Below are positions 13,854 through 39,322 of a stretch of DNA of 64,000 nucleotides, in pieces. The stretch is from Alphaproteobacteria bacterium. GTDB taxonomy: Bacteria > Pseudomonadota > Alphaproteobacteria > Bin95. A model generated the notes under the pieces. That model was not told the DNA's origin. It made no database searches and saw only the letters and a program-made list of their open reading frames with translations. Position numbers and translations under genes: made by a program. The stretch is taken from contig OZ219787.1 in assembly GCA_964291285.2 (NCBI GenBank), forward strand, positions 32,001-96,000. The letters run 5' to 3'. Position 1 is the first letter of the stretch. Every line of letters begins with the position of its first letter.

Positions 13854-14249
13854 TCCAGAAGGCCGGACGGCCGCGCCGGGCACCCTGCCCGGTGAGGAAG
13901 GTCCGGGCTCCACGGAGGAACGGTGCCGGGTAACGCCCGGCGGGGGCGATCCCAGGGAAAGTGCCACAGAAAACAAACCGCCGGCCCTTCGGGTTCGCCC
14001 GCCGGCCGGCAAGGGTGAAACGGGGCGGTAAGAGCGCCCCGCGGCTCCGGCAACGGAGCCGGCAGGGCAAACCCCACCGGGAGCAAGACCGAATAGGAGC
14101 GGCAGGCCGGGGCAAACCGTCCCGGCCGGCGTCCTCCGCGTCGCCGCTCGGGTTGGTCGCACGAGGCGTCCGGCAACGGACGTCCCAGACGAATGGCCGT
14201 CGCCGCCCGGAAACGGGCGGTACAGAACCCGGCCTACAGGCCTTCTGGA
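13854..14249 (+). ncRNA. rnpB: RNase P RNA, class A
   Basis: GAGGAAGGTCCGGGCTC, AGTGCCACAGAAA, GGGTGAAACGG, GGTAAGAGC, AAACCCC..GAGCAAG, ACAGAACCCGGCCTAC; P1 tccagaaggcc/ggccttctgga. Confidence 0.97.
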
Positions 14250-14496
14250 TCGTCCTCCTGGGGACATTGACAAGGTTCCGCGCCGGGAACCGGCGGTCTG
14301 TCGGCGGGCTCCCGCAGGGGCGATCAGGCGCAGCTGCAGGGCCCACTCCAGGCCGGTCTCCGCCCCGGTCGTTCGCAAGGCATTGCAACCTCCTTGCCGA
14401 TCCGTGGTCCCGGACGCCTCCGTTGCCGGAGGAGCATCCGTCGCCCGCGCATGATGCGCGCCCGCCCGCGCGTGCGCGCCCGCATGCGCGGGCCGG

Positions 14497-14578
14497 TTCG
14501 GAGCGGTCCCCTTCGACAAGCTCAGGACAGGCTTTCGATACGCGCCCGCTGGCGCGGTCGCTACTCAGGATGAGGGGC
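14497..14578. repeat. REP-like repeat, same family as 256-390
   Basis: Near reverse complement of 256-312 with an inserted ccttcgacaagctcaggacagg unit. Confidence 0.75.
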
Positions 14579-14639
14579 GGGGATGGCGGCCCGGACAGAA
14601 CTCTCATCCCGGGTAGCGGCGCCAGCCGCGTATCGAGGG

Positions 14640-15059
14640 ATCCCCGCATGTCATGGAATGTCATGTTCCGTCATGCGATGTCATGATCTGCATGTGCGCG
14701 GCGCATATCCTGCGGCTCTTTCGGGCATGAAGCCGCCCTTTCCGGCAGGTTCCGGATACGCCGTCCGGGTTCTTCGACTTCGCGTCTTCTGCATGGGTCC
14801 GTCCTTTCGCTCCTGGTCCCTTCCATTTCCGTCGGCCCCGGCTGCAGCGGGACCCTAATTCGCGCCTAATGTGCGCAGGCGCCCGCGCCCGCCCGCGCGC
14901 CCTTCGCGGCGGCGCGAATCGCGCGCCTGATTGCGCCCGCGCGCGCGAGGCCCGAACGCAGGGCGCACGTCTCCCGTCAGCTTCCCGGGTGCTTTTTTCG
15001 CGCCGGCGCCGACGCGGAGGACAGGGCGGCCCCGCGAACGCCGCCTCCTTCCTCCTGCC
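14640..15059 (-). repeat. Dispersed ~420-nt element, copy 1
   Basis: Colinear blocks shared with 36320-36741 (cgcgcgcctgattgcgc, cgcagggcgcac, ttttttcgcgccggcgc, ccttcctcctgc). Confidence 0.8.
14681..14794 (-). CDS. Putative 37-aa micropeptide MQKTRSRRTRTAYPEPAGKGGFMPERAAGYAPRTCRS
   Basis: SD GAAAGGA; start, stop and frame conserved with 36390-36485. Confidence 0.5.
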   Translation of the reverse strand: MQKTRSRRTRTAYPEPAGKGGFMPERAAGYAPRTCRS

Positions 15060-15063
15060 CTAG

Positions 15064-17077
15064 CCCGACTTCCGCAACTCGGGGGTCATGAGGATGCTAA
15101 CTCATTGAATAGCCTTGATCGTCTCCCCGAGGGTCGGCACTACAAGGCGGCGAACGGAGAGGCGGCGCCGTGTGCCGTCAGGCGGAGATCCGGGGTGCGG
15201 GTTGCTGCGGCCAGGTCATGCCGAGCTGTTGCAGCAGTAGCTCGTGCTCCTTGTTCGGCCGGGTGTGGCGCGGCAGGACGAGGTGCCGGCCGTCGGTGGT
15301 TGGCAGATGGACGTCCACCATCTGGATGGTGGCGAAGGCCTCAAGGATGGCGCGTGGGGTGAGGCCCGGGGCGCGCGGCCGGGCGAGGTTCTTCAGGGTC
15401 ACCAGCAGGCAGTAGGCGATGAACGAGACGAAGATATGCGCCTCGATGCGCTCTTGGCGCTGATGGAAGATGGGGCGGATCGCGAGGTCGTGCTTGAGTT
15501 CCTTGAACGCCTGCTCGATCTCGACGAGCTGCATGTACAGATGCCACAGCGTGGCGGGGTCTTCGGCGACCATGTTGGATCGCAGCAGGTAACGGCCCTC
15601 GCGGCGGCGGACCTGGCGCAGCCGGTCGCGCTGCAGGCGGAATGAGAAGCCGTTGGCGGCGAGTTCGCTGTCGGTCCCGGGCACGGTGATGTCGACCAGG
15701 CTCCAGGCCCGGCCGGCCTCCTTCCTGGCGGCGCCGAGCTTGAGCAACAACTGATCCCGGCTGTTCGACTGCCCTTGCAACTCGGCCAATCGACGCCACA
15801 GCCTCTTCAGCCGGCGCCGGCGCATGCCGCGTTCCTTCACCTGCCGCCCCTCGCTGCGCACCAGGACGTAGAGCTCGCCATCCTCGACCAGAAGCTTGAC
15901 AGTCACGGACTGGCGCACCTCCTGCCAGGGCAGGCCCAGGAACACCTTCTCGAGCCGCGTCAGCCGGCCCTTGGGCGTGCCCACCAGGTAGCGCACCGGC
16001 GCCTCGCCCTCGCGCATCGCGGCCAGCGTCTCCTCGGTGGGGATGCCGCGGTCCATGATCCACACCCGCTCGGAGCGGCCATACTGATCCTCGATCTTCT
16101 TGAGGAACGCCGCCAGCGTGGTGTCGTCGGAGGTGTTGCCCGGCATCACCTCATAGGCCAGCGGAAAGCCCTGCGGCGTAACGATCAGGGCGATCACCAC
16201 CTGCACGCAGTCGGGCCGCTTGTCCCGGCTGTAGCCGAAGCGGCGCTTGTCATCGAACGGCGGATCGCTCTCGAAGTAGGTCGAGGTCAGGTCGTAGAGC
16301 AGCACGTCGAAGCGCGCCTCGAACAGCGTCGCCCAGCGGTCGCGCAGAAACGAGAAGAAGCCCTGCTTGTGCGCCAGCAGCTTGTCGAGACAGCGATAGA
16401 GTGTGTCGTCGGCGATCGCCCGCTCGCCACCCAGAAGATCGCGAAGCGCGCTGTGCTCATACCAGTGACGGTGAAGGCGCCACTCGCTGCCCGGGTCGAT
16501 CAGCCGGTAGCAGACCTGGATCTTCAGGATGTCCAGCCACCGCGTGCCTTGCCGGCTCGCCGGCAGCCGCTCTTCCCAGAAGCGGTCCAGGTCCAGGCGG
16601 TCCCACAAGGACAGCGCCAGCCAGCACGCCCCCCACTGGCGCGGGTCGTGAAGCGCCACCTGCGAGAGGTCGATCTTCACCACTTCGCAAGTCAGCGCCG
16701 GCGCCTCCCGGTCCTCGGGAAACAGCGCCATCTGCCGTGATCGCGACTTGCCCTCCACCACCTCGATCGAGCGGCACCACGCCGCTCGCTGGCTGTCGTT
16801 GATCTCCCCGAGATAGAGCACCTGACGCTGAACAACCCGACCGCCGTGGACCCGGACGTTCTCCACAACGCTCCAGTAGCGGTGCTCCTTGCCGTCCTTG
16901 AAGCGTCTCTTGCAGCGCACGAACATCAGCGCAGCGTCCGGATCTTCGCCAGCCCGATCAAGGGGGTAGGTCGGCACTACAAGCCGGTCCCGAGAGGTAC
17001 TGCACCGAAATCCGACACTTCTCGCGCCGGAAAACCGTCAAATCAGTCGATTCTCAAGCCGAGTTGCGGAAGTCGGG
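15064..17077 (-). mobile_element. IS1634-family element, copy 1 (2014 bp)
   Basis: TIR CCCGACTTCCGCAACTCGG; CTAG on both flanks. Confidence 0.9.
15178..16926 (-). CDS. IS1634-family DDE transposase
   Basis: YDLTSTYFE, GYSRDKRPD, MDRGI, IEQAFKELKHDL. Confidence 0.9.
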   Translation of the reverse strand: MFVRCKRRFKDGKEHRYWSVVENVRVHGGRVVQRQVLYLGEINDSQRAAWCRSIEVVEGKSRSRQMALFPEDREAPALTCEVVKIDLSQVALHDPRQWGACWLALSLWDRLDLDRFWEERLPASRQGTRWLDILKIQVCYRLIDPGSEWRLHRHWYEHSALRDLLGGERAIADDTLYRCLDKLLAHKQGFFSFLRDRWATLFEARFDVLLYDLTSTYFESDPPFDDKRRFGYSRDKRPDCVQVVIALIVTPQGFPLAYEVMPGNTSDDTTLAAFLKKIEDQYGRSERVWIMDRGIPTEETLAAMREGEAPVRYLVGTPKGRLTRLEKVFLGLPWQEVRQSVTVKLLVEDGELYVLVRSEGRQVKERGMRRRRLKRLWRRLAELQGQSNSRDQLLLKLGAARKEAGRAWSLVDITVPGTDSELAANGFSFRLQRDRLRQVRRREGRYLLRSNMVAEDPATLWHLYMQLVEIEQAFKELKHDLAIRPIFHQRQERIEAHIFVSFIAYCLLVTLKNLARPRAPGLTPRAILEAFATIQMVDVHLPTTDGRHLVLPRHTRPNKEHELLLQQLGMTWPQQPAPRISA

Positions 17078-31215: not shown

Positions 31216-33229
31216 CCCGACTTCCGCAACTCGGCTTGAGAATCGACTGATTTGACGGTTTTCCGGCGCGAGAAGTGTCGGATTTCGGTGCAGTACCTCT
31301 CGGGACCGGCTTGTAGTGCCGACCTACCCCCTTGATCGGGCTGGCGAAGATCCGGACGCTGCGCTGATGTTCGTGCGCTGCAAGAGACGCTTCAAGGACG
31401 GCAAGGAGCACCGCTACTGGAGCGTTGTGGAGAACGTCCGGGTCCACGGCGGTCGGGTTGTTCAGCGTCAGGTGCTCTATCTCGGGGAGATCAACGACAG
31501 CCAGCGAGCGGCGTGGTGCCGCTCGATCGAGGTGGTGGAGGGCAAGTCGCGATCACGGCAGATGGCGCTGTTTCCCGAGGACCGGGAGGCGCCGGCGCTG
31601 ACTTGCGAAGTGGTGAAGATCGACCTCTCGCAGGTGGCGCTTCACGACCCGCGCCAGTGGGGGGCGTGCTGGCTGGCGCTGTCCTTGTGGGACCGCCTGG
31701 ACCTGGACCGCTTCTGGGAAGAGCGGCTGCCGGCGAGCCGGCAAGGCACGCGGTGGCTGGACATCCTGAAGATCCAGGTCTGCTACCGGCTGATCGACCC
31801 GGGCAGCGAGTGGCGCCTTCACCGTCACTGGTATGAGCACAGCGCGCTTCGCGATCTTCTGGGTGGCGAGCGGGCGATCGCCGACGACACACTCTATCGC
31901 TGTCTCGACAAGCTGCTGGCGCACAAGCAGGGCTTCTTCTCGTTTCTGCGCGACCGCTGGGCGACGCTGTTCGAGGCGCGCTTCGACGTGCTGCTCTACG
32001 ACCTGACCTCGACCTACTTCGAGAGCGATCCGCCGTTCGATGACAAGCGCCGCTTCGGCTACAGCCGGGACAAGCGGCCCGACTGCGTGCAGGTGGTGAT
32101 CGCCCTGATCGTTACGCCGCAGGGCTTTCCGCTGGCCTATGAGGTGATGCCGGGCAACACCTCCGACGACACCACGCTGGCGGCGTTCCTCAAGAAGATC
32201 GAGGATCAGTATGGCCGCTCCGAGCGGGTGTGGATCATGGACCGCGGCATCCCCACCGAGGAGACGCTGGCCGCGATGCGCGAGGGCGAGGCGCCGGTGC
32301 GCTACCTGGTGGGCACGCCCAAGGGCCGGCTGACGCGGCTCGAGAAGGTGTTCCTGGGCCTGCCCTGGCAGGAGGTGCGCCAGTCCGTGACTGTCAAGCT
32401 TCTGGTCGAGGATGGCGAGCTCTACGTCCTGGTGCGCAGCGAGGGGCGGCAGGTGAAGGAACGCGGCATGCGCCGGCGCCGGCTGAAGAGGCTGTGGCGT
32501 CGATTGGCCGAGTTGCAAGGGCAGTCGAACAGCCGGGATCAGTTGTTGCTCAAGCTCGGCGCCGCCAGGAAGGAGGCCGGCCGGGCCTGGAGCCTGGTCG
32601 ACATCACCGTGCCCGGGACCGACAGCGAACTCGCCGCCAACGGCTTCTCATTCCGCCTGCAGCGCGACCGGCTGCGCCAGGTCCGCCGCCGCGAGGGCCG
32701 TTACCTGCTGCGATCCAACATGGTCGCCGAAGACCCCGCCACGCTGTGGCATCTGTACATGCAGCTCGTCGAGATCGAGCAGGCGTTCAAGGAACTCAAG
32801 CACGACCTCGCGATCCGCCCCATCTTCCATCAGCGCCAAGAGCGCATCGAGGCGCATATCTTCGTCTCGTTCATCGCCTACTGCCTGCTGGTGACCCTGA
32901 AGAACCTCGCCCGGCCGCGCGCCCCGGGCCTCACCCCACGCGCCATCCTTGAGGCCTTCGCCACCATCCAGATGGTGGACGTCCATCTGCCAATCACCGA
33001 CGGCCGGCACCTCGTCCTGCCGCGCCACACCCGGCCGAACAAGGAGCACGAGCTACTGCTGCAACAGCTCGGCATGACCTGGCCGCAGCAACCCGCACCC
33101 CGGATCTCCGCCTGACGGCACACGGCGCCGCCTCTCCGTTCGCCGCCTTGTAGTGCCGACCCTCGGGGAGACGATCAAGGCTATTCAATGAGTTAGCATC
33201 CTCATGACCCCCGAGTTGCGGAAGTCGGG
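31216..33229 (+). mobile_element. IS1634-family element, copy 2 (2014 bp)
   Basis: Same TIRs as copy 1; CTAA on both flanks. Confidence 0.9.
31367..33115 (+). CDS. IS1634-family DDE transposase
   Basis: Matches copy 1 except LPTTDG/LPITDG. Confidence 0.9.
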   Translation: MFVRCKRRFKDGKEHRYWSVVENVRVHGGRVVQRQVLYLGEINDSQRAAWCRSIEVVEGKSRSRQMALFPEDREAPALTCEVVKIDLSQVALHDPRQWGACWLALSLWDRLDLDRFWEERLPASRQGTRWLDILKIQVCYRLIDPGSEWRLHRHWYEHSALRDLLGGERAIADDTLYRCLDKLLAHKQGFFSFLRDRWATLFEARFDVLLYDLTSTYFESDPPFDDKRRFGYSRDKRPDCVQVVIALIVTPQGFPLAYEVMPGNTSDDTTLAAFLKKIEDQYGRSERVWIMDRGIPTEETLAAMREGEAPVRYLVGTPKGRLTRLEKVFLGLPWQEVRQSVTVKLLVEDGELYVLVRSEGRQVKERGMRRRRLKRLWRRLAELQGQSNSRDQLLLKLGAARKEAGRAWSLVDITVPGTDSELAANGFSFRLQRDRLRQVRRREGRYLLRSNMVAEDPATLWHLYMQLVEIEQAFKELKHDLAIRPIFHQRQERIEAHIFVSFIAYCLLVTLKNLARPRAPGLTPRAILEAFATIQMVDVHLPITDGRHLVLPRHTRPNKEHELLLQQLGMTWPQQPAPRISA

Positions 33230-33329
33230 CTAACTATTTGAGTTAGCGTTTTTTTCCAGAAATTCACAACTGGGAAACCGGATTGTAACCGCTGGTTCCC
33301 CGGCTGCAACCGGAGCCGGGAGAACCCGC

Positions 33330-33619: not shown

Positions 33620-34381
33620 CTACAGAAAGACCGTGCCACCATCCACCATCAGGGTCTGGCCGGTGACGAGCCTGCTGGCGTCGGAGGCGAGGTAGAGCAC
33701 GGTGCCCACCAGGTCGTCGGTGGTGAGGTTCCTCTGCAGGCTCTGGCCGGCGGCGACCGCCTGCAGCAGCTTGTCCTTCTTGGACCCGAAGAAGTCGTCG
33801 GTGCCCTCGGTCAGCACCGCGCTGGGCGCGATGGCGTTGACTCTGATCCAGTCGCGTCCGAGCTCGCGGGCAAGCGCGCGGGTCATGCCGATGACCGCAG
33901 CCTTCGACGTCGCGTAGTGAAGGCCGAAGGGCATGCCATAGACCGCGGCAAGGGAGGCGATGTTGATGATCGAGCCGCCGCCGGCCTCGCGCATGGCCGG
34001 CACGCACGCCTTGGTGCATTGCCAGACGCCGCGCACGTTGACGGCCATGGTGCGGTCCCACTCGTCCTGCTCGATCCTGTCGAAACGCCCGCCCTGGGTG
34101 TCGCCGTAGAGCGCGGCGTTGTTGACGAGCACGTCGATACGGCCGAACTCGGCGACGGCGTGCCTTGCCATGGCCTCGCAGCTCGCCATGTCGGCGGCGT
34201 CCAGCGCAATGCCGGTGACGCGCCCCTGGGCGGCGGTGACGGATTCCACGGTCTCGGCCGTGTCGCGGATGTCGGCGGCGACCACGGCAGCGCCTTCGCG
34301 CGCCAGCGCTTCGCAATAGGCGCGGCCCAGACCCCGCCCGCCGCCGGTGACGACGGCGACCTTCCCCTCAAGCTGTGACAT
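33620..34381 (-). CDS. SDR family oxidoreductase
   Basis: TGGGRGLG, NNAA, YATSK; own purine-rich SD. Confidence 0.9.
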   Translation of the reverse strand: MSQLEGKVAVVTGGGRGLGRAYCEALAREGAAVVAADIRDTAETVESVTAAQGRVTGIALDAADMASCEAMARHAVAEFGRIDVLVNNAALYGDTQGGRFDRIEQDEWDRTMAVNVRGVWQCTKACVPAMREAGGGSIINIASLAAVYGMPFGLHYATSKAAVIGMTRALARELGRDWIRVNAIAPSAVLTEGTDDFFGSKKDKLLQAVAAGQSLQRNLTTDDLVGTVLYLASDASRLVTGQTLMVDGGTVFL

Positions 34382-34690
34382 CGGCTCTCCCCCCTTCTCT
34401 CGCATGGTTGCGCCGGCCAGGCCCTCGCGCCGCCGGCGAAAGGCCTCCGAATAGGCCACAAGCGGCGTCACGACAAGCCGGCCGGCCTTTCCAATTGGCG
34501 TGCGCCGTCCAAGCTTCGCCAGGCGCCGCCTGAGTTCCCGTTCAAGCCGGCTTCGGCGGAACGGCGTGAGCTTCGGCCATTCTTCGATTTCAGCGTCGGT
34601 CCTGCCGCAGCCCAGGCACCACCCCGTCCCCGGGTCGGAACGGCAGACGTCGATGCATGGGGATCGGGCGCGTCTTGCCGCGCGTTTCAT
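34382..34690 (-). CDS. DUF1289-like Cys-rich domain reading in frame into the SDR
   Basis: SPCIDVC..GWCLGCGRT..EIEEW; no stop before the SDR ATG. Confidence 0.65.
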
Positions 34691-34724
34691 GGCGGAACCT
34701 CGATTGGGCTTCCTGCGTTCGCGC

Positions 34725-35804
34725 TCATGATGGAGCCCGCCAGTCGGAAAGGCTGATTCGACCGACAAAGCCGCTCTCGGTACCGAGTGCCAGATGCTGT
34801 CCATCCGCCGACCATGCGAGCGCGGTCACAGCGCCCTTGCCGGGTTGCCTGACCGGAACCGGATGAGCGCCGTCGATCTTCACGAGCATGGCGGCGCCGT
34901 CCTTGTATCCGGCGGCGACCACGTCATGCCGGGGGTGGGCAGCCACCACCGTCACCACACTCTCGGAGCCCTGCCCGAGGTCGAGCGGCGCCTTGCCCAT
35001 GGGCCCGCCCTTGCCGTGGAATGGCCAACAAACGACGGAGTCCGCGCCACCGGTCGCCAGATACCGTCCCTTCGGCAGCCAGCTCATCGACTTGACCTTC
35101 GTCGGGTAGCCGGACATCCGCATATCGGCGCTGTCGGAGAGGCGCCAGCCGTGGAGTTCATTCTCCTGCATGGCGGTGACGATGTATTTCCCGTCCGGGC
35201 TCCAGGTCAGACCGAGATGCGAGCCCGCCCAGCTGAGTCGTTTGGGTTTCTGTGTGCTGGGCCTCGCCCACCAGAGGCTGATTCCGCCATAATGCGCGGC
35301 GGCGATCCGTCGTCCTTTCGGGTCGAACGCCAGACCGCTGACCGTGTTTGCATGATCGAACTGTCCAACTGCTGTTCCATCTCGAGCGAAAAGGGAAACT
35401 GTCTTGCCGAAAGCCGCAGCGCATAGACCGGATGCCCTGCTGACGACAATCGGCTCGACCCATTGGCCCGCAATGCATGCAATTTCGGTGGTCTCGCCGC
35501 CGGTACCGGTGCTCACCAGCCGTCCGTCATCTCCGCCTGTCAGAACGCGCTGTTCCTCCAAGTCGACGGCCAGCGAAAGACAAGCCCCGTCATGCACGGA
35601 AACGAAGGACGGAGGATTCGTGCTCTCGCTGTCGATGAACGCGACCCGGCCGTCCCCGAGTGCAACCGCGAGCAGTCCCTCCTCAAGAAACGCAATGCCC
35701 ACCACATAAGCGTCGAGCGTCCGCCCGGCGCCGATGCGATCAAGCAGCGTCGTCTCGCCAGCGCCCGGATAGCCGGCGAGAACGGCAGCGGGGATCTGAT
35801 TCAC
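34725..35804 (-). CDS. WD40 beta-propeller with an N-terminal CobW P-loop stub
   Basis: TGGDDG, LAFDPKG, WSPDGKY, WSADG repeats; N-terminus IPAAVLAGYPGAGETTLLDRI. Confidence 0.85.
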   Translation of the reverse strand: MNQIPAAVLAGYPGAGETTLLDRIGAGRTLDAYVVGIAFLEEGLLAVALGDGRVAFIDSESTNPPSFVSVHDGACLSLAVDLEEQRVLTGGDDGRLVSTGTGGETTEIACIAGQWVEPIVVSRASGLCAAAFGKTVSLFARDGTAVGQFDHANTVSGLAFDPKGRRIAAAHYGGISLWWARPSTQKPKRLSWAGSHLGLTWSPDGKYIVTAMQENELHGWRLSDSADMRMSGYPTKVKSMSWLPKGRYLATGGADSVVCWPFHGKGGPMGKAPLDLGQGSESVVTVVAAHPRHDVVAAGYKDGAAMLVKIDGAHPVPVRQPGKGAVTALAWSADGQHLALGTESGFVGRISLSDWRAPS

Positions 35805-35931
35805 GGGTTCCCTGTCCCTCAATTTCTAAAGCCGTTCGGTAGCACTCAGCTGCCTCTACCCGGTTCGTGGATGCTGGCGGGAAGCCCGCACGGCGAGACC
35901 ACCCGCTGGACCGGCGCCGGTGAGAGTATAC

Positions 35932-35948: not shown

Positions 35949-36319
35949 AAACAGCTACTAATTGCGAGAGTCAAACGCCCCCTGGAAACCGGGCGCGGCG
36001 GCAGGAGAGGGGGTGACATGCATACAGTTTGCGACAGCCGGACCGACACTTTCGATTTGCCCGCGCTGCCGCGACAGGCGCGATGATCCGCGAATACCGG
36101 ATGTTCCTGTTCACCGAGCCGCGCCTCGTCCTGGCTCCGATCCTGGCCTGCGCGCTCGTTACCGTGCTGCTCCACGGGATACTCGACCGGGGCAGCAGCT
36201 AGCGCGCGATCCGTTCGGGCCGAAACGGTCTCGTTTGCAGAGCCTCGACCGTCACGCCGGCATCCGGCCGCTGCCCGCATTCCGGCCTCGCGCCCGCCGC
36301 CGGGGCAGGAACACCCATC

Positions 36320-36741
36320 GAACATGTCATGAGATGTCATGTTTTGTCATGCGGGCCCGGCAGGACCCCCTGCGATATGTCATGAGATGTCATGTTCTGC
36401 ATGCATGCGGCGCATACCCTGCATCCCGTTCGGGCATGGGCACCGGATATTCCATCCGGTTCCTCCGGCTTCGCGTCTTCGGCATGGGCCTGTCCTTTCG
36501 ACCCGTCTCCGTTCCATTCTTCCCGCCTTCCGGTTGCCGGAGCGGCGGGACCCTGTTTCGCGCGTATCCTGCGCGCGCCTGTGCCGGCGCGGGCGCGTGT
36601 CGGCGTCGGCGCGGTTCGCGCGCCTGATTGCGCGCGCGAGACGCAGGGCGCACCTCTCCTGTGCGTTCCTCAGGGGTTTTTTCGCGCCGGCGCGAACGGC
36701 GAAACGAAGCGGCCCCGCGGATGCCGCTTCCTTCCTCCTGC
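36320..36741 (-). repeat. Dispersed ~420-nt element, copy 2
   Basis: Diverged homolog of 14640-15059. Confidence 0.8.
36390..36485 (-). CDS. Putative 31-aa micropeptide MPKTRSRRNRMEYPVPMPERDAGYAPHACRT
   Basis: SD GAAAGGA; homolog of 14681-14794 with a net 18-nt in-frame length difference. Confidence 0.5.
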   Translation of the reverse strand: MPKTRSRRNRMEYPVPMPERDAGYAPHACRT

Positions 36742-37033
36742 TATCCATAATAACACAGAATCCCTGAGGTCAATCCCCCATCGCAGAATTATTTCCAAAA
36801 AAACAGGAATCGACAGGAATCGAGATGCGGCTTCATTGCGCGCTTCAGTCTGCATAGCTCGAATGGCAAGGCCGGGAACTGGACCCCGGACCGTCCCGGA
36901 CCGGGCCCCGGGGAAAGCTGCCGGCGCGCCGTCCCCGGAACCTCAATCACCGCTCCGTCCCCCGCCTGTCCGCGAGCGGGGGGCCGGGGCGTGCGGATTT
37001 CCGGTACGGAGAGAATGGGTGCCGCCAAGAGCA

Positions 37034-38230
37034 TCAAGCGGCGATTGCCGGGTCGGGACTCGTTTCGTTCCGTTGGCCGTGTGCGGCGCGGCGCAGGTCG
37101 GCGGCGAGCTTGGCGAGAAAGGCGGCGGCGGCCATGACGAGGCTGATATGGCGGTGCCAGCCATGCCAGGAGCGGGCCTCGCAATGATCGAGGCCGAGAT
37201 CCTCCTTCGCCCTCTGGAGGCATTCCTCGATGGTCCATCGCAGACCGGCGGCACCGGCGAGTTCGGCGAGCGTCGTGCCGGCTCGGCAGAAGACGAGATA
37301 GTAGGCCCGCTTGTCGGGGTCGCGGCGGGAGCGTCGGATCAGAAGCCAGCGCTCCCGGCCATCTTCGCGGCGCCGGGCCAGCGCGACCCGTGCCCAGTCG
37401 TAGAGCCTCGGGCCCTTGCTGCCCTCGCCGGAGGCATGCGCGGCCCAAGCCCCGTCTTCCAGTTCGTCGGCGATTGTCGCGGGATCGGTCTGGATCAACC
37501 CCTCGGCGGCGACGAAGCGCAAAGAGTGGTCGCCGCACACCGCCAGCACGTAGCTCTGTTCCCGCCCTTCCAGCATGCGCCGCAGGCCGGAGTCCGATCC
37601 ATAGACCGCATCGGCCAGAACGAAGGCGCAGGGAACGCCGGCGTCGAGAGCTTCGCCGATCATCGCGCTAGCCAGCACGGGCTTGGTGGCGAAGGCGACC
37701 TCTTCCGGCACCTGCGTCTTCGTGCGCCGCGCGCGGTCCTCCGCCCACTCGCGCGGCAGATACAGACGGCGGTCGATCAATGCCTGGCCGAAGCGGCCCG
37801 CATAGGCGAGGAACACGCCGACCTGGCTGTTCTCCACGCGGCCCGCGGTCCCCGCATATTGGCGCGCGACGCCGACCGAGTGACGGCCCTTCTTCACGAA
37901 GCCGGTCTCGTCGACCACCAGAACCCCGTCCGGACAGCCCAGCGCCTCGACCGCATAGGTGCGGACCTCGTCCCGCAGCGCATCGGCATCCCAGCGGCTC
38001 TTGCCCAGAAGCGCCTGCATCCGCCACGGGCCCGGCAGACCCGCCTGCTCCGCCATCATCCAGCCCGTCTTGCGCTCGATCCCCGACAGAAGGCCGTCGA
38101 GAAACGCCCCTCCCGTCTCACGAAGCTGACGACGCCTGAACACCGGACCCAGACGGGCCTTCCACGAGCAAAGCTCCCGCTCCCACTCCACAAGCGAACC
38201 GGACCATTCCGCAACGCTCATTCCGTCCAT
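37034..38230 (-). CDS. IS701-family transposase
   Basis: VVDETGFVKKGRHSVGVARQYAG, NSQVGV, ADAVYG, RWTIEE..GLDHCEAR; element ends not identified. Confidence 0.9.
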   Translation of the reverse strand: MDGMSVAEWSGSLVEWERELCSWKARLGPVFRRRQLRETGGAFLDGLLSGIERKTGWMMAEQAGLPGPWRMQALLGKSRWDADALRDEVRTYAVEALGCPDGVLVVDETGFVKKGRHSVGVARQYAGTAGRVENSQVGVFLAYAGRFGQALIDRRLYLPREWAEDRARRTKTQVPEEVAFATKPVLASAMIGEALDAGVPCAFVLADAVYGSDSGLRRMLEGREQSYVLAVCGDHSLRFVAAEGLIQTDPATIADELEDGAWAAHASGEGSKGPRLYDWARVALARRREDGRERWLLIRRSRRDPDKRAYYLVFCRAGTTLAELAGAAGLRWTIEECLQRAKEDLGLDHCEARSWHGWHRHISLVMAAAAFLAKLAADLRRAAHGQRNETSPDPAIAA

Positions 38231-38317
38231 CCTCCGAAAGCGAAAGGCGGAACTACCCTTCCCAAAAGGAAACGGGGCGCTCCGCTTCGCGTTCGTCGTT
38301 CGTGCTCTCGCGCCGGG

Positions 38318-39322
38318 TTACGGCGACAGCGCTTTCGTAAGCGTCTCGACATTGTGGCGCATCATGTCGAGATAGGTGGACGCCGGCTCGTCCGGCCCGG
38401 AAAGCGCATCGGAGTACAGCGTCCCGCCGATGGACGCGCCGGTTTCGTCGGCGATCTGCTCAAGCAGGCGGCTGTCCGTGATCGACTCGACGAAGACGGC
38501 CGTGATTCCTTCTTCACGGATCTGCCGGATCAGGGTGGCGACATCCCCGGCGGACGGTTCGCTTTCGGTGCTTATGCCACTGGGGGCAACAAACCGCAGG
38601 CCGTAGGTCTCGGCAAAATACCCGAAGGCGTCATGGGGGGTGACGATCGTGCGCCTGTCCTCGGGCAGCCCTCCGACAGCCTTGCGGATGTCGGCATCCA
38701 GCGCCTCTATTTCAGCCACATAGGCCGCACGGTTCCCGTAATAGGTCGATGCGTTGGCAGGGTCGGCCTTGGACAGCGCCGCAGCGATGTTGTCGACATA
38801 GATCACTGCATTGGCGGGGTTCTGCCAGGCATGCGGGTCGAAGGCGCCGTGGTCGTGCTCGTCCGCGTGCTCCTCCTTGTCGTGGTCGTCCTTGGCCGCG
38901 TGGTCGTGGTCATCCTTGTCGTGGTCGTCCTTTTCGGCGTGGTCGTCATGGTGGTCGTCGTCATCCTCAAGCCTGATTGCCTGGATCCCGTCGGTCGCCA
39001 CCACGCGGACGCCGCCAAAGCCCGACGCCTCGACCAGCCGGTCCAGCCAGCCTTCGAACGCAAGACCGTTGAACACGAGGATATCGGCCTGACTCACGGC
39101 GCGCGCATCGGCCGGGGTCGGGTTATAGACATGGGCATCGCCGTTGGCCCCGACCAGCGTGGTGACGGCAATCCTGTCGCCGCCGATGCGCTTGACCATG
39201 TCTCCCAGTATCGAAAAGGTGGCGACCACCGGGATGGGAGCGTCGGCGGACCATGCCGGCGCCGTCATCGACAGGCCGATGAGGGCGGTTGCGGATATCA
39301 GCAGGTTTCTGCGCCTGGTCAC
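38318..39322 (-). CDS. Zinc ABC substrate-binding protein (ZnuA/AztC-like) with His/Asp-rich loop
   Basis: DAHVYNPT, HHDDHAEKDDHDKDDHDH.., DPHAWQ, HDAFGYF, LYSDAL. Confidence 0.9.
   Translation of the reverse strand: MTRRRNLLISATALIGLSMTAPAWSADAPIPVVATFSILGDMVKRIGGDRIAVTTLVGANGDAHVYNPTPADARAVSQADILVFNGLAFEGWLDRLVEASGFGGVRVVATDGIQAIRLEDDDDHHDDHAEKDDHDKDDHDHAAKDDHDKEEHADEHDHGAFDPHAWQNPANAVIYVDNIAAALSKADPANASTYYGNRAAYVAEIEALDADIRKAVGGLPEDRRTIVTPHDAFGYFAETYGLRFVAPSGISTESEPSAGDVATLIRQIREEGITAVFVESITDSRLLEQIADETGASIGGTLYSDALSGPDEPASTYLDMMRHNVETLTKALSP

Follow-up and report, generated by a model that had tools for sequence, protein, structure and literature searches.

A dispersed intergenic repeat family with predicted promoters and apparently decayed, non-autonomous copies in one uncultured alphaproteobacterial genus

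Introduction

The described systems closest to the repeat treated here are the Correia elements of Neisseria, the terS-pac modules of pac-type phages and phage-inducible islands, integron gene cassettes, the long direct repeat (LDR) loci Ldr/Rdl of E. coli and the palindrome-associated elements derived from insertion sequences (ISs) of the IS200/IS605 type. Pac sites lie in or beside terS and are made of phased repeats, and type I toxins are small, hydrophobic, membrane-active peptides. The repeat was met as two copies in a 64,000-nucleotide (nt) stretch of Alphaproteobacteria bacterium contig OZ219787.1 (positions 32,001 to 96,000; assembly GCA_964291285.2), called the window throughout. An earlier reading of the window from its letters alone (the sequence-only reading) had taken the copies for an unnamed RNA-plus-peptide locus. 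They belong to an undescribed family of about a hundred DNA units with their own predicted promoters, in which six parts are found: an AT-rich promoter block, a leader hairpin and a core (both within a long leader), a Shine-Dalgarno sequence (SD) with ATG, a variable body, and a 3' end of CATGAC repeats. With a probability of roughly 0.6, the units form a genus-restricted selfish family of which both window copies are short, decayed members without a body. A full-text literature search, judged from its result entries alone, returned nothing relevant to the family.

Correia elements resemble the units in high copy number, intergenic position, promoter-like sequence and structured transcript, in being confined to a genus, and in having ISs inserted next to or into copies; the units differ in a length 3-10 times greater, in a modular build that includes an SD and ATG, in the existence of intact members with genes, and in the lack of a terminal inverted repeat (TIR) and of target duplication. 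The terS-pac modules share a TerS DNA-binding domain followed by long helices and a gene that ends in helical-turn repeats, whereas here none of four Pfam large-terminase families and no phage context was found, the protein carries an acidic tail of ~200 amino acids (aa) that is seen in none of 36 matching phage records, about 111 arrays are present per genome, and binding is a prediction. Integron cassettes likewise hold different bodies between a common 5' platform and a short 3' site, and a secondary cassette of the present family (module X) is flanked by the 3' site on both sides at 5 loci; here, however, a direct repeat takes the place of the attC-type imperfect palindrome at the 3' site, each unit comes with a promoter of its own, and the platforms are dispersed instead of arrayed. 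No integrase or other gene recurs beside the units, IntI itself not having been searched for. The Ldr/Rdl loci are also repeats of ~500 nt with a long conserved leader and an open reading frame (ORF) of ~35 codons, but the peptide here is basic, unselected and inconsistent in frame, about 100 copies are present, and long members carry ordinary genes. IS200/IS605 derivatives similarly lack inverted repeats and target duplication and have a conserved hairpin near one end; in the present units, by contrast, the hairpin lies inside the predicted transcript after the promoter block, the 3' end is a direct repeat, and the genome has no Y1 transposase. A miniature inverted-repeat transposable element (MITE) or other non-autonomous DDE transposon was considered and rejected on the lack of TIRs, the lack of target duplication and the full-length members without transposase; a MITE parent with a transposase was not encountered, since the full-length members encode TerS-like, acidic, methylase-HNH or isochorismatase-domain proteins.

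If the selfish reading is true, each genome of one genus would hold roughly 50 kb of ready-made expression units, about a hundred in number. Units with their own promoters, an almost invariant leader core and a three-frame stop/start repeat would then fit no described class of mobile element, and their intact members would encode a phage packaging protein in a genome without a packaging machine.

Size and range of the family

The genome of the window (G000; 6.13 Mb, 5 contigs, 68% G+C, 100% complete) was searched for further copies, as the sequence-only reading had proposed, and copy 1 was found by BLASTn to match 47 places. With nhmmer, 94 matches were obtained from a single sequence and 155 from a profile, so that the resemblance among copies is far beyond chance; the 5' module is present in 97 of the profile matches, and 101 extend to the 3' end. 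Among the 76 units with a CATGAC triple within 1.9 kb, 43 measure up to 520 nt, 22 measure 521-1000 nt, 10 measure 1001-1400 nt and 1 is longer.

Of 16 other genomes of the genus, 14 have the family, whereas it was found in none of 8 genomes from other genera of the taxonomic family and in none of 16 genomes from other families of the class; by this comparison it appears restricted to one uncultured alphaproteobacterial genus. The exact 24-base core occurs in at least 105 stretches of public genome contigs, nearly all of them labelled as uncultured Alphaproteobacteria or Rhodospirillales (one is labelled Bryobacterales). A distant blastn search of a plasmid collection with copy 2 gave no match.

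Architecture of the units

Promoter block: In 83 of the 86 units with an intact left edge, the 62 nt upstream are at least 50% A+T (genome A+T 32%). The pattern TTGnnn-N15/16-TGnTAnnnT is present in 40 of these 86 units, with a 15-nt spacer in 36 and a 16-nt spacer in 4, and the extended -10 alone in 10 more; TTGTTC and AATAATTC motifs lie farther upstream. The block is thus predicted to be a promoter. A LexA-like GTTC-N7-GTTC box and a CtrA box were each rejected by eye, being inconsistent across subfamilies, and the left-arm motif CATGAT...TGAAACGG.TTC, which stands beside units in two other genomes, is absent here and was dropped as a part of the unit.

Leader: The leader is GC-rich and ~255 nt long. 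Its core 16-mer GCAATCAGGCGCGCGA is found unaltered in 79 of 97 units, and the longer core GCAATCAGGCGCGCGAACCGCGCC has many columns that do not vary among 76 leaders of several genomes. The 5' hairpin is helix 1 of alignment A2; pairing holds in 90% of its cells, and two-sided changes occur in 5 of its 8 pairs. When a four-helix leader structure was tested, 91.6% of cells paired, as against 37-51% with the partners slid, and 26 cells carried two-sided changes, as against 13.8 +/- 3.1 in shuffles, none of 500 shuffles reaching 26; this crude form of the covariation analysis proposed in the sequence-only reading found the 5' hairpin preserved through compensatory changes. Most other candidate helices were traced by a stem scan to repetitive GCGC runs and were discarded. 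Real structural support exists for the 5' hairpin and, to a lesser degree, for a second hairpin. With Rfam at gathering thresholds the whole window gave only RNase P; at E <= 1, copy 2 gave no match, and units of the other two subfamilies gave one unrelated sub-threshold match, outside the unit. The element is unnamed, as the sequence-only reading held.

3' end: The units close with CATGACAAAACATGACATTCCATGACA or a close variant, in which three CATGAC repeats are phased at 10 nt. This triple occurs at 111 sites in the genome and at none in a reversed control, and similarity between units ends ~0-60 nt past it. As 10 is 1 modulo 3, the repeats put TGA, and ATGA, in every frame. Module X (~200 nt) has its own SD, ATG and a 15-codon ORF, and it usually follows the triple of a unit and ends with a CATGAC triple of its own. 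At 5 loci apart from that of copy 1 it has a triple on either side, the two being spaced 197-199 nt, which looks like the addition of cassettes at the repeat array. As a separate observation, two IS3-family elements (TGGAGTGGGCCCC...GGACAGTTT) begin about 6 nt past the last CATGACA of several units (G000 C1:691020, C2:1315727, C3:880867 and others), and sequences resembling these starts stand solo after other units; either the array is an IS hot spot or the unit terminus resembles an IS end.

The two copies in the window

Copies 1 and 2 (14640-15059 and 36320-36741; both, with all their parts, on the minus strand) have 77% mean column identity, flanks counted in, and much of what the sequence-only reading had described was recovered from their alignment. 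They are two diverged copies of one element; the 5' hairpin is compensated, with GGCGGC/GCCGCC in copy 1 and AGCGGC/GCCGCT in copy 2; long identical blocks run through both GC-rich leaders; the SD GAAAGGA and an ATG are present in both; and CATGACAT words recur in both at 10-nt spacing, the stop codon of the micro-ORF falling within the run. The micro-ORF encodes 37 aa in copy 1 and 31 aa in copy 2, and a single 18-nt gap separates the two.

Copy 1 (14649..15058), delimited by the copy 2 alignment, nhmmer model positions 1-500 and the ortholog in the related genome G006, is a short unit of subfamily C that extends from the beginning of the leader to the final CATGACA repeat and has no promoter block. 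Its parts are the 5' hairpin (GGCGGC...GCCGCC, 15024..15047), the leader core GCAATCAGGCGCGCGATTCGCGCC (14911..14934), which is 2 bases off the commonest 24-mer of the family, the translation start and micro-ORF (14681..14808; SD 14802-14808, ATG 14792-14794, ORF including stop 14681-14794), and four contiguous 10-nt-phased CATGAC repeats (14649..14685), the first of which holds the TGA of the micro-ORF.

Copy 2 (36325..36741, bounded by the predicted start of transcription and the last base of the terminal CATGAC triple) is likewise a short unit of subfamily C and otherwise looks intact. Its predicted AT-rich promoter block (36747..36830) includes TTGACC (36768-36773), a 15-nt spacer and the extended -10 TGTTATTAT (36747-36755), with GAAATAATTC farther upstream, so that the promoter-like site of the sequence-only reading is present by sequence. 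The leader core (36608..36631) is the family core given above, an exact 24-mer that recurs elsewhere; the SD (36493-36499), ATG (36483-36485) and micro-ORF including stop (36390-36485) follow as one tract (36390..36499). The 3' end (36325..36394) consists of two CATGACAT repeats, a 23-nt GC-rich spacer and the terminal triple CATGACAAAACATGACATCTCATGACA (36325-36351). The RNA of copy 2 folds at -193.5 kcal/mol (z = -3.1), a value equalled by none of 100 shuffles.

Gene-bearing and short units

TerS-like gene: An intact ORF of 329-336 aa is the body of about 10 units, and it ends inside the 10-nt-phased CATGACA array. Its N-terminus matches Pfam Terminase_2 (45.2 bits against a cut-off of 26.1, residues 11-70), and the protein also matches terminase-small-subunit families of PHROG; matches to PDB sequences are weak. 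An AlphaFold model reached pLDDT 88-96 over residues 11-60, with long helices after them, and its top Foldseek matches were the solved small terminases 4zc3, 3zqq and 2cmp (E 0.013-0.024), the best being the DNA-binding domain of the SF6 small terminase (target TM-score 0.85, 39% identity). The N-terminus is accordingly identified as a helix-turn-helix DNA-binding domain of the small-terminase type. The remaining ~200 residues are acidic and mostly predicted to be disordered, end in a lysine-rich patch and show conservation throughout the genus. The matches of 36 phage records are confined to residues ~10-120, those annotated among the 12 listed being terminase small subunits, and none of the 36 covers 80% or more of the protein. 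The large-terminase families PF03354, PF03237, PF04466 and PF05876 each gave 0 matches in this complete genome, and any packaging role would therefore need an incoming phage.

Other bodies: An acidic orphan protein of 192-234 aa, without a Pfam family, is found in 6 units; none of its 155 relatives has a Pfam domain, and the three with a source name are hypothetical proteins of uncultured Rhodospirillaceae or Alphaproteobacteria. PADLOC assigned neither the TerS-like nor the acidic protein to a family. One unit each has as its body a DNA methylase-HNH fusion (locus L154, G000 C3:1312450-1313649) and an isochorismatase-domain protein, the latter in the subfamily of the window copies. An IS1595-like ORF, named by eye, lies on the opposite strand at locus L154.

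Short units: Most units, both window copies among them, are short internal-deletion derivatives. In many of these the first ~24-30 codons of the TerS-like or the acidic gene are kept and joined to the 3' end. The parent gene of the "MPKT..." variant in the window was found neither here nor in one database search with a 41-aa member as the query, the latter being weak evidence. The option of a non-autonomous element, one of those offered in the sequence-only reading, fits in so far as both window copies are short derivatives of gene-bearing units.

The micro-ORF

The micro-ORF was surveyed in 88 units from this genome and its relatives. A start codon stands at the family position in 70 units and is absent there in 18; an ORF of up to 60 codons begins at the family start in 59, with two clusters of length, 31 codons in 14 units and 41 codons in 17. 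These two classes have N-terminal words in common, after which a 20-nt difference follows and the 3' module is read in different frames (...GYAPRACRS* versus ...HADHDIS*). The ratio of replacement to silent changes (N/S) was 2.27 in the 31-aa class and 2.86 in the 41-aa class, against neutral values of 2.95 and 3.11 and a span of 1.99-3.28 in two control frames, and the third codon positions are not the most variable within either class; as positive controls, the TerS-like gene gave 0.70 and the acidic protein 1.23 by the same measure. In the G006 ortholog of copy 1 the start is GTG, a -1/+1 frameshift pair is present, and, as read by eye from the alignment, 7 replacement changes stand against 1 silent change. 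R, K, E and P abound in the peptides, which lack any hydrophobic stretch (e.g. MPKTRSRRNRMEYPVPMPERDAGYAPHACRT).

The micro-ORF is a by-product of the unit design and not a conserved protein. In the window copies, with the body lost, the start codon of the family leads directly into the 3' module. The start survives because it is the translation start of the family, and a stop is guaranteed because the 10-nt repeats put TGA in all frames; the short ORF is therefore always open and closed and needs no peptide function. The survival of start, stop and frame across the 18-nt length difference, to which the sequence-only reading had pointed, is observed and is explained without coding, the 18-nt gap between the window copies being a one-in-three coincidence. 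The conserved micropeptide of that reading is contradicted by N/S values near neutral and like those of the control frames, and by two frames over one 3' module; its type I toxin option fails on basic hydrophilic peptides without frame conservation; and frameshifts among other copies, which it had named as refuting evidence, were found in the 31/41-aa classes and in the -1/+1 pair of G006. What is left of its RNA-plus-peptide locus is a dispersed element with a compensated hairpin leader, the functional peptide falling away. For annotation, the 30-40-codon ORFs that look "conserved" in these genomes, dozens in number, ought not to be entered as genes.

Spread and upkeep of the family

When the 10 TerS-bearing units were compared, mean pairwise identity rose from 0.24 in the flank upstream to 0.53 across the promoter block and 0.75 over leader nt 1-45, held at 0.89-0.90 for the rest of the unit up to and including the triple, and fell to 0.29 in the flank beyond it; the variants of the hairpin and those of the middle leader are freely combined. 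This mosaic fits an exchange of the inner part between units by homologous recombination and not a transposition of whole units. The 9 TerS-like copies of this genome are 90-100% identical, and none in another genome of the genus exceeds 84%, which indicates concerted evolution or recent within-genome spread; yet the rnpB flanks of G000 and G006 are 96% identical.

Two units of other genomes lie at sites that are empty in this genome, one intergenic site holds different subfamilies in G007 and G000, and where flanks from relatives map to separate places here, the breaks are often at units. An empty-site comparison, also proposed in the sequence-only reading, was possible for copy 2: at locus L158 of the related genome G005, window 36077-36204 (95% identity) is joined straight to 36985-38486 (91%), no unit was detected there with nhmmer, and the block that holds copy 2 (36205..36984, minus strand) has no counterpart at this junction.

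In the mechanism proposed here, a unit would be transcribed from its own extended -10 promoter into a structured RNA stabilised by the 5' hairpin, and the family would be a selfish cassette, persisting and spreading chiefly through homologous recombination (or gene conversion) between the conserved leader of existing units and their 3' repeats. The TerS-like protein would recognise the phased CATGACA repeats as small terminases do phased pac repeats, the position of its gene adjoining the array being the one ground for this step; the CATGACA repeat also resembles the unit's own -35 region (cTTGACATCT). The chain of own transcription, selfish recombination and TerS-like binding is offered tentatively as a whole, the odds leaning against all of its links holding together.

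Several results weigh against the selfish reading. In 66 units the best 14-nt inverted match between the ends had a mean of 10.67, as against 10.53 with mismatched partners, which bears out the "no TIRs" of the sequence-only reading; the longest direct repeat of the flanks had a mean of 6.58, as against 6.76 in the control, although fuzzy edges could hide short duplications. No transposase occurs in or beside the units as a part of their own, those nearby belonging to separate ISs, and Y1_Tnp (PF01797) gave 0 matches in this genome, control genomes having given matches. The edges of filled and empty sites are ragged and carry extra sequence, so that deletion is indistinguishable from insertion and the empty-site comparison tells that copy 2 is absent from G005 and no more. 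Many units are orthologous between species, one locus being 94.7% identical across unit and flanks, and together with the nearly invariant core this would also fit a host function under purifying selection. In G008, 16 DNA matches to units were found and no TerS-like gene at E <= 1e-20; since units are kept there without the gene, the protein is not needed for their upkeep. From the raw alignment of 76 leaders, RNAalifold predicted 17 pairs of which only 2 are compensatory, and the core helix never varies, so that structure evidence outside the 5' hairpin is weak. A generic promoter scan called 0 sites at copy 2; the scan demands a 16-18-nt spacer and was silent because the spacer of copy 2 is 15 nt.

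The units might instead be host regulatory RNA genes or leaders, the core binding a common factor, about 100 transcripts being co-controlled or titrating it, and the short units being functional. The exact core 16-mer in 79 of 97 units and the invariant columns across 76 leaders speak for this, as do the compensation in the 5' hairpin (26 two-sided cells against 13.8 +/- 3.1), the retained promoter blocks, the orthologous sites of some units and the fold of copy 2 (z = -3.1). It is nevertheless judged unlikely: no Rfam match was obtained even at E <= 1, the bodies are unrelated genes and broken remnants as is typical of decay, TerS-like copies are more alike within the genome than between species, ISs disrupt several units (copy 1 among them), and invariant GC-rich helices are no evidence of structure. 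A different host-side account, in which the unit is a portable expression adapter that brings a promoter, leader, SD and start and whose phased CATGAC repeats stop incoming translation and restart it for the downstream gene, draws on the 10-nt period, which places ATGA in each frame, and on the downstream coding-like ORF that is open right from the unit end in 19 of 35 co-oriented cases. The nearest downstream gene, however, is co-oriented in 35 cases, opposite in 33 and absent in 7, and the upstream bias is weak (53 against 35); this lack of a downstream orientation preference argues against a general promoter role for neighbouring genes as well and, like the absence of any recurring neighbour gene, speaks for units that are self-contained. 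Where the neighbour is opposite, it ends 32-105 nt from the unit in 19 of 33 cases, an upstream run-on of ORFs is expected by chance at 68% G+C (our own estimate), and full units close their own ORF inside the repeats, all of which makes the adapter decidedly improbable.

A functional micro-ORF, whether as a basic peptide, a leader peptide or a type I toxin-like product, is more improbable still, to the point of being scarcely credible. The start at the family position in 70 of 88 units, the two length clusters of 31 aa and 41 aa, and the retention of a 37-codon ORF through a compensated frameshift in the G006 ortholog of copy 1 could be read in its favour, but they are met by the lack of any codon-position or N/S signal, the different frames of the two classes over a shared 3' module, the 18 of 88 units without a start codon, the basic and hydrophilic nature of the peptides, stops that arise from repeats conserved for other reasons and, as weak evidence, the lack of a longer homologue to the 41-aa query. 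An extension of the selfish reading may also be conceived, in which a new selfish system is built around the orphan small terminase: the ~111 CATGACA arrays would act as pac-like sites, the body would "home" into body-less platforms through recombination of the conserved leader with the repeat array, and upon phage infection the protein and its sites could capture the large terminase of the phage and turn packaging towards about 100 places on the host replicons, for defence or generalised gene transfer. This is speculative and rather improbable. A selfish family spreading within one genus, to which the two window copies belong as decayed members, is thus the reading preferred here.

Surroundings of the two copies

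Upstream sides: The statement of the sequence-only reading that no transposase is present holds for the element itself; unrelated IS transposase genes do lie directly upstream of both copies. At the position of the promoter block of copy 1 stands an unrelated IS (15061..16977, minus strand), with a 70-nt end (15061-15130) and a 599-aa DDE_Tnp_1 ORF (15178-16977, Pfam). The insertion point is ...TAG/GG, where the G006 ortholog has an AT-rich promoter block, and the block of copy 1 was lost to this IS. Among the best 120 of 305 BLAST matches, the 70-nt end recurs in at least 42 other places at 96-100% identity, and another copy of it lies at about window 33163-33232. The same IS also abuts the left edge of units after ...TAG/GG, 6 units in all being affected, and several nhmmer matches break at model position ~207, which corresponds to ...TTAG/GG in the copy 1 sequence. 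Upstream flanks are otherwise unique and no neighbour gene recurs. This IS is highly active. Upstream of copy 2 lies an IS701-like DDE_5 transposase gene (37034-38230, minus strand, Pfam), which is kept at the same place in G005 at 91% identity and for that reason predates copy 2 or is independent of it. The units mark IS insertion hot spots and rearrangement breakpoints and thereby shape the genome structure of this group.

Downstream sides: The ortholog of copy 1 in G006 lies beside rnpB (RNase P RNA), and the unit is 86% and its flanks are 96% identical there; nothing at this locus corresponds to window 14280-14645. Within that tract, a secondary cassette resembling module X (14351..14490, minus strand) lies downstream of copy 1, its own CATGAC triple being missing; TGGAGTGGGCCC (14339-14350) comes next. 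Window ~14520-14640 is taken up by a REP-like repeat (...CCTCATCCTGAGTAGCGACCGCGCC...GAGCTTGTCGAAGGGG), which is very abundant in relatives, with dozens of matches each in G005 and G006. RNase P RNA of bacterial class A was identified at window 13855-14252 (plus strand, 275 bits). The DNA on its far side in G007, G010 and G012 is found here on contig C2 at about 545.5 kb, which points to a rearrangement at this spot. Downstream of copy 2, a WD40-repeat protein (34725-35822) and a fusion of DUF1289 with a short-chain dehydrogenase (33620-34804) are encoded, both on the minus strand.

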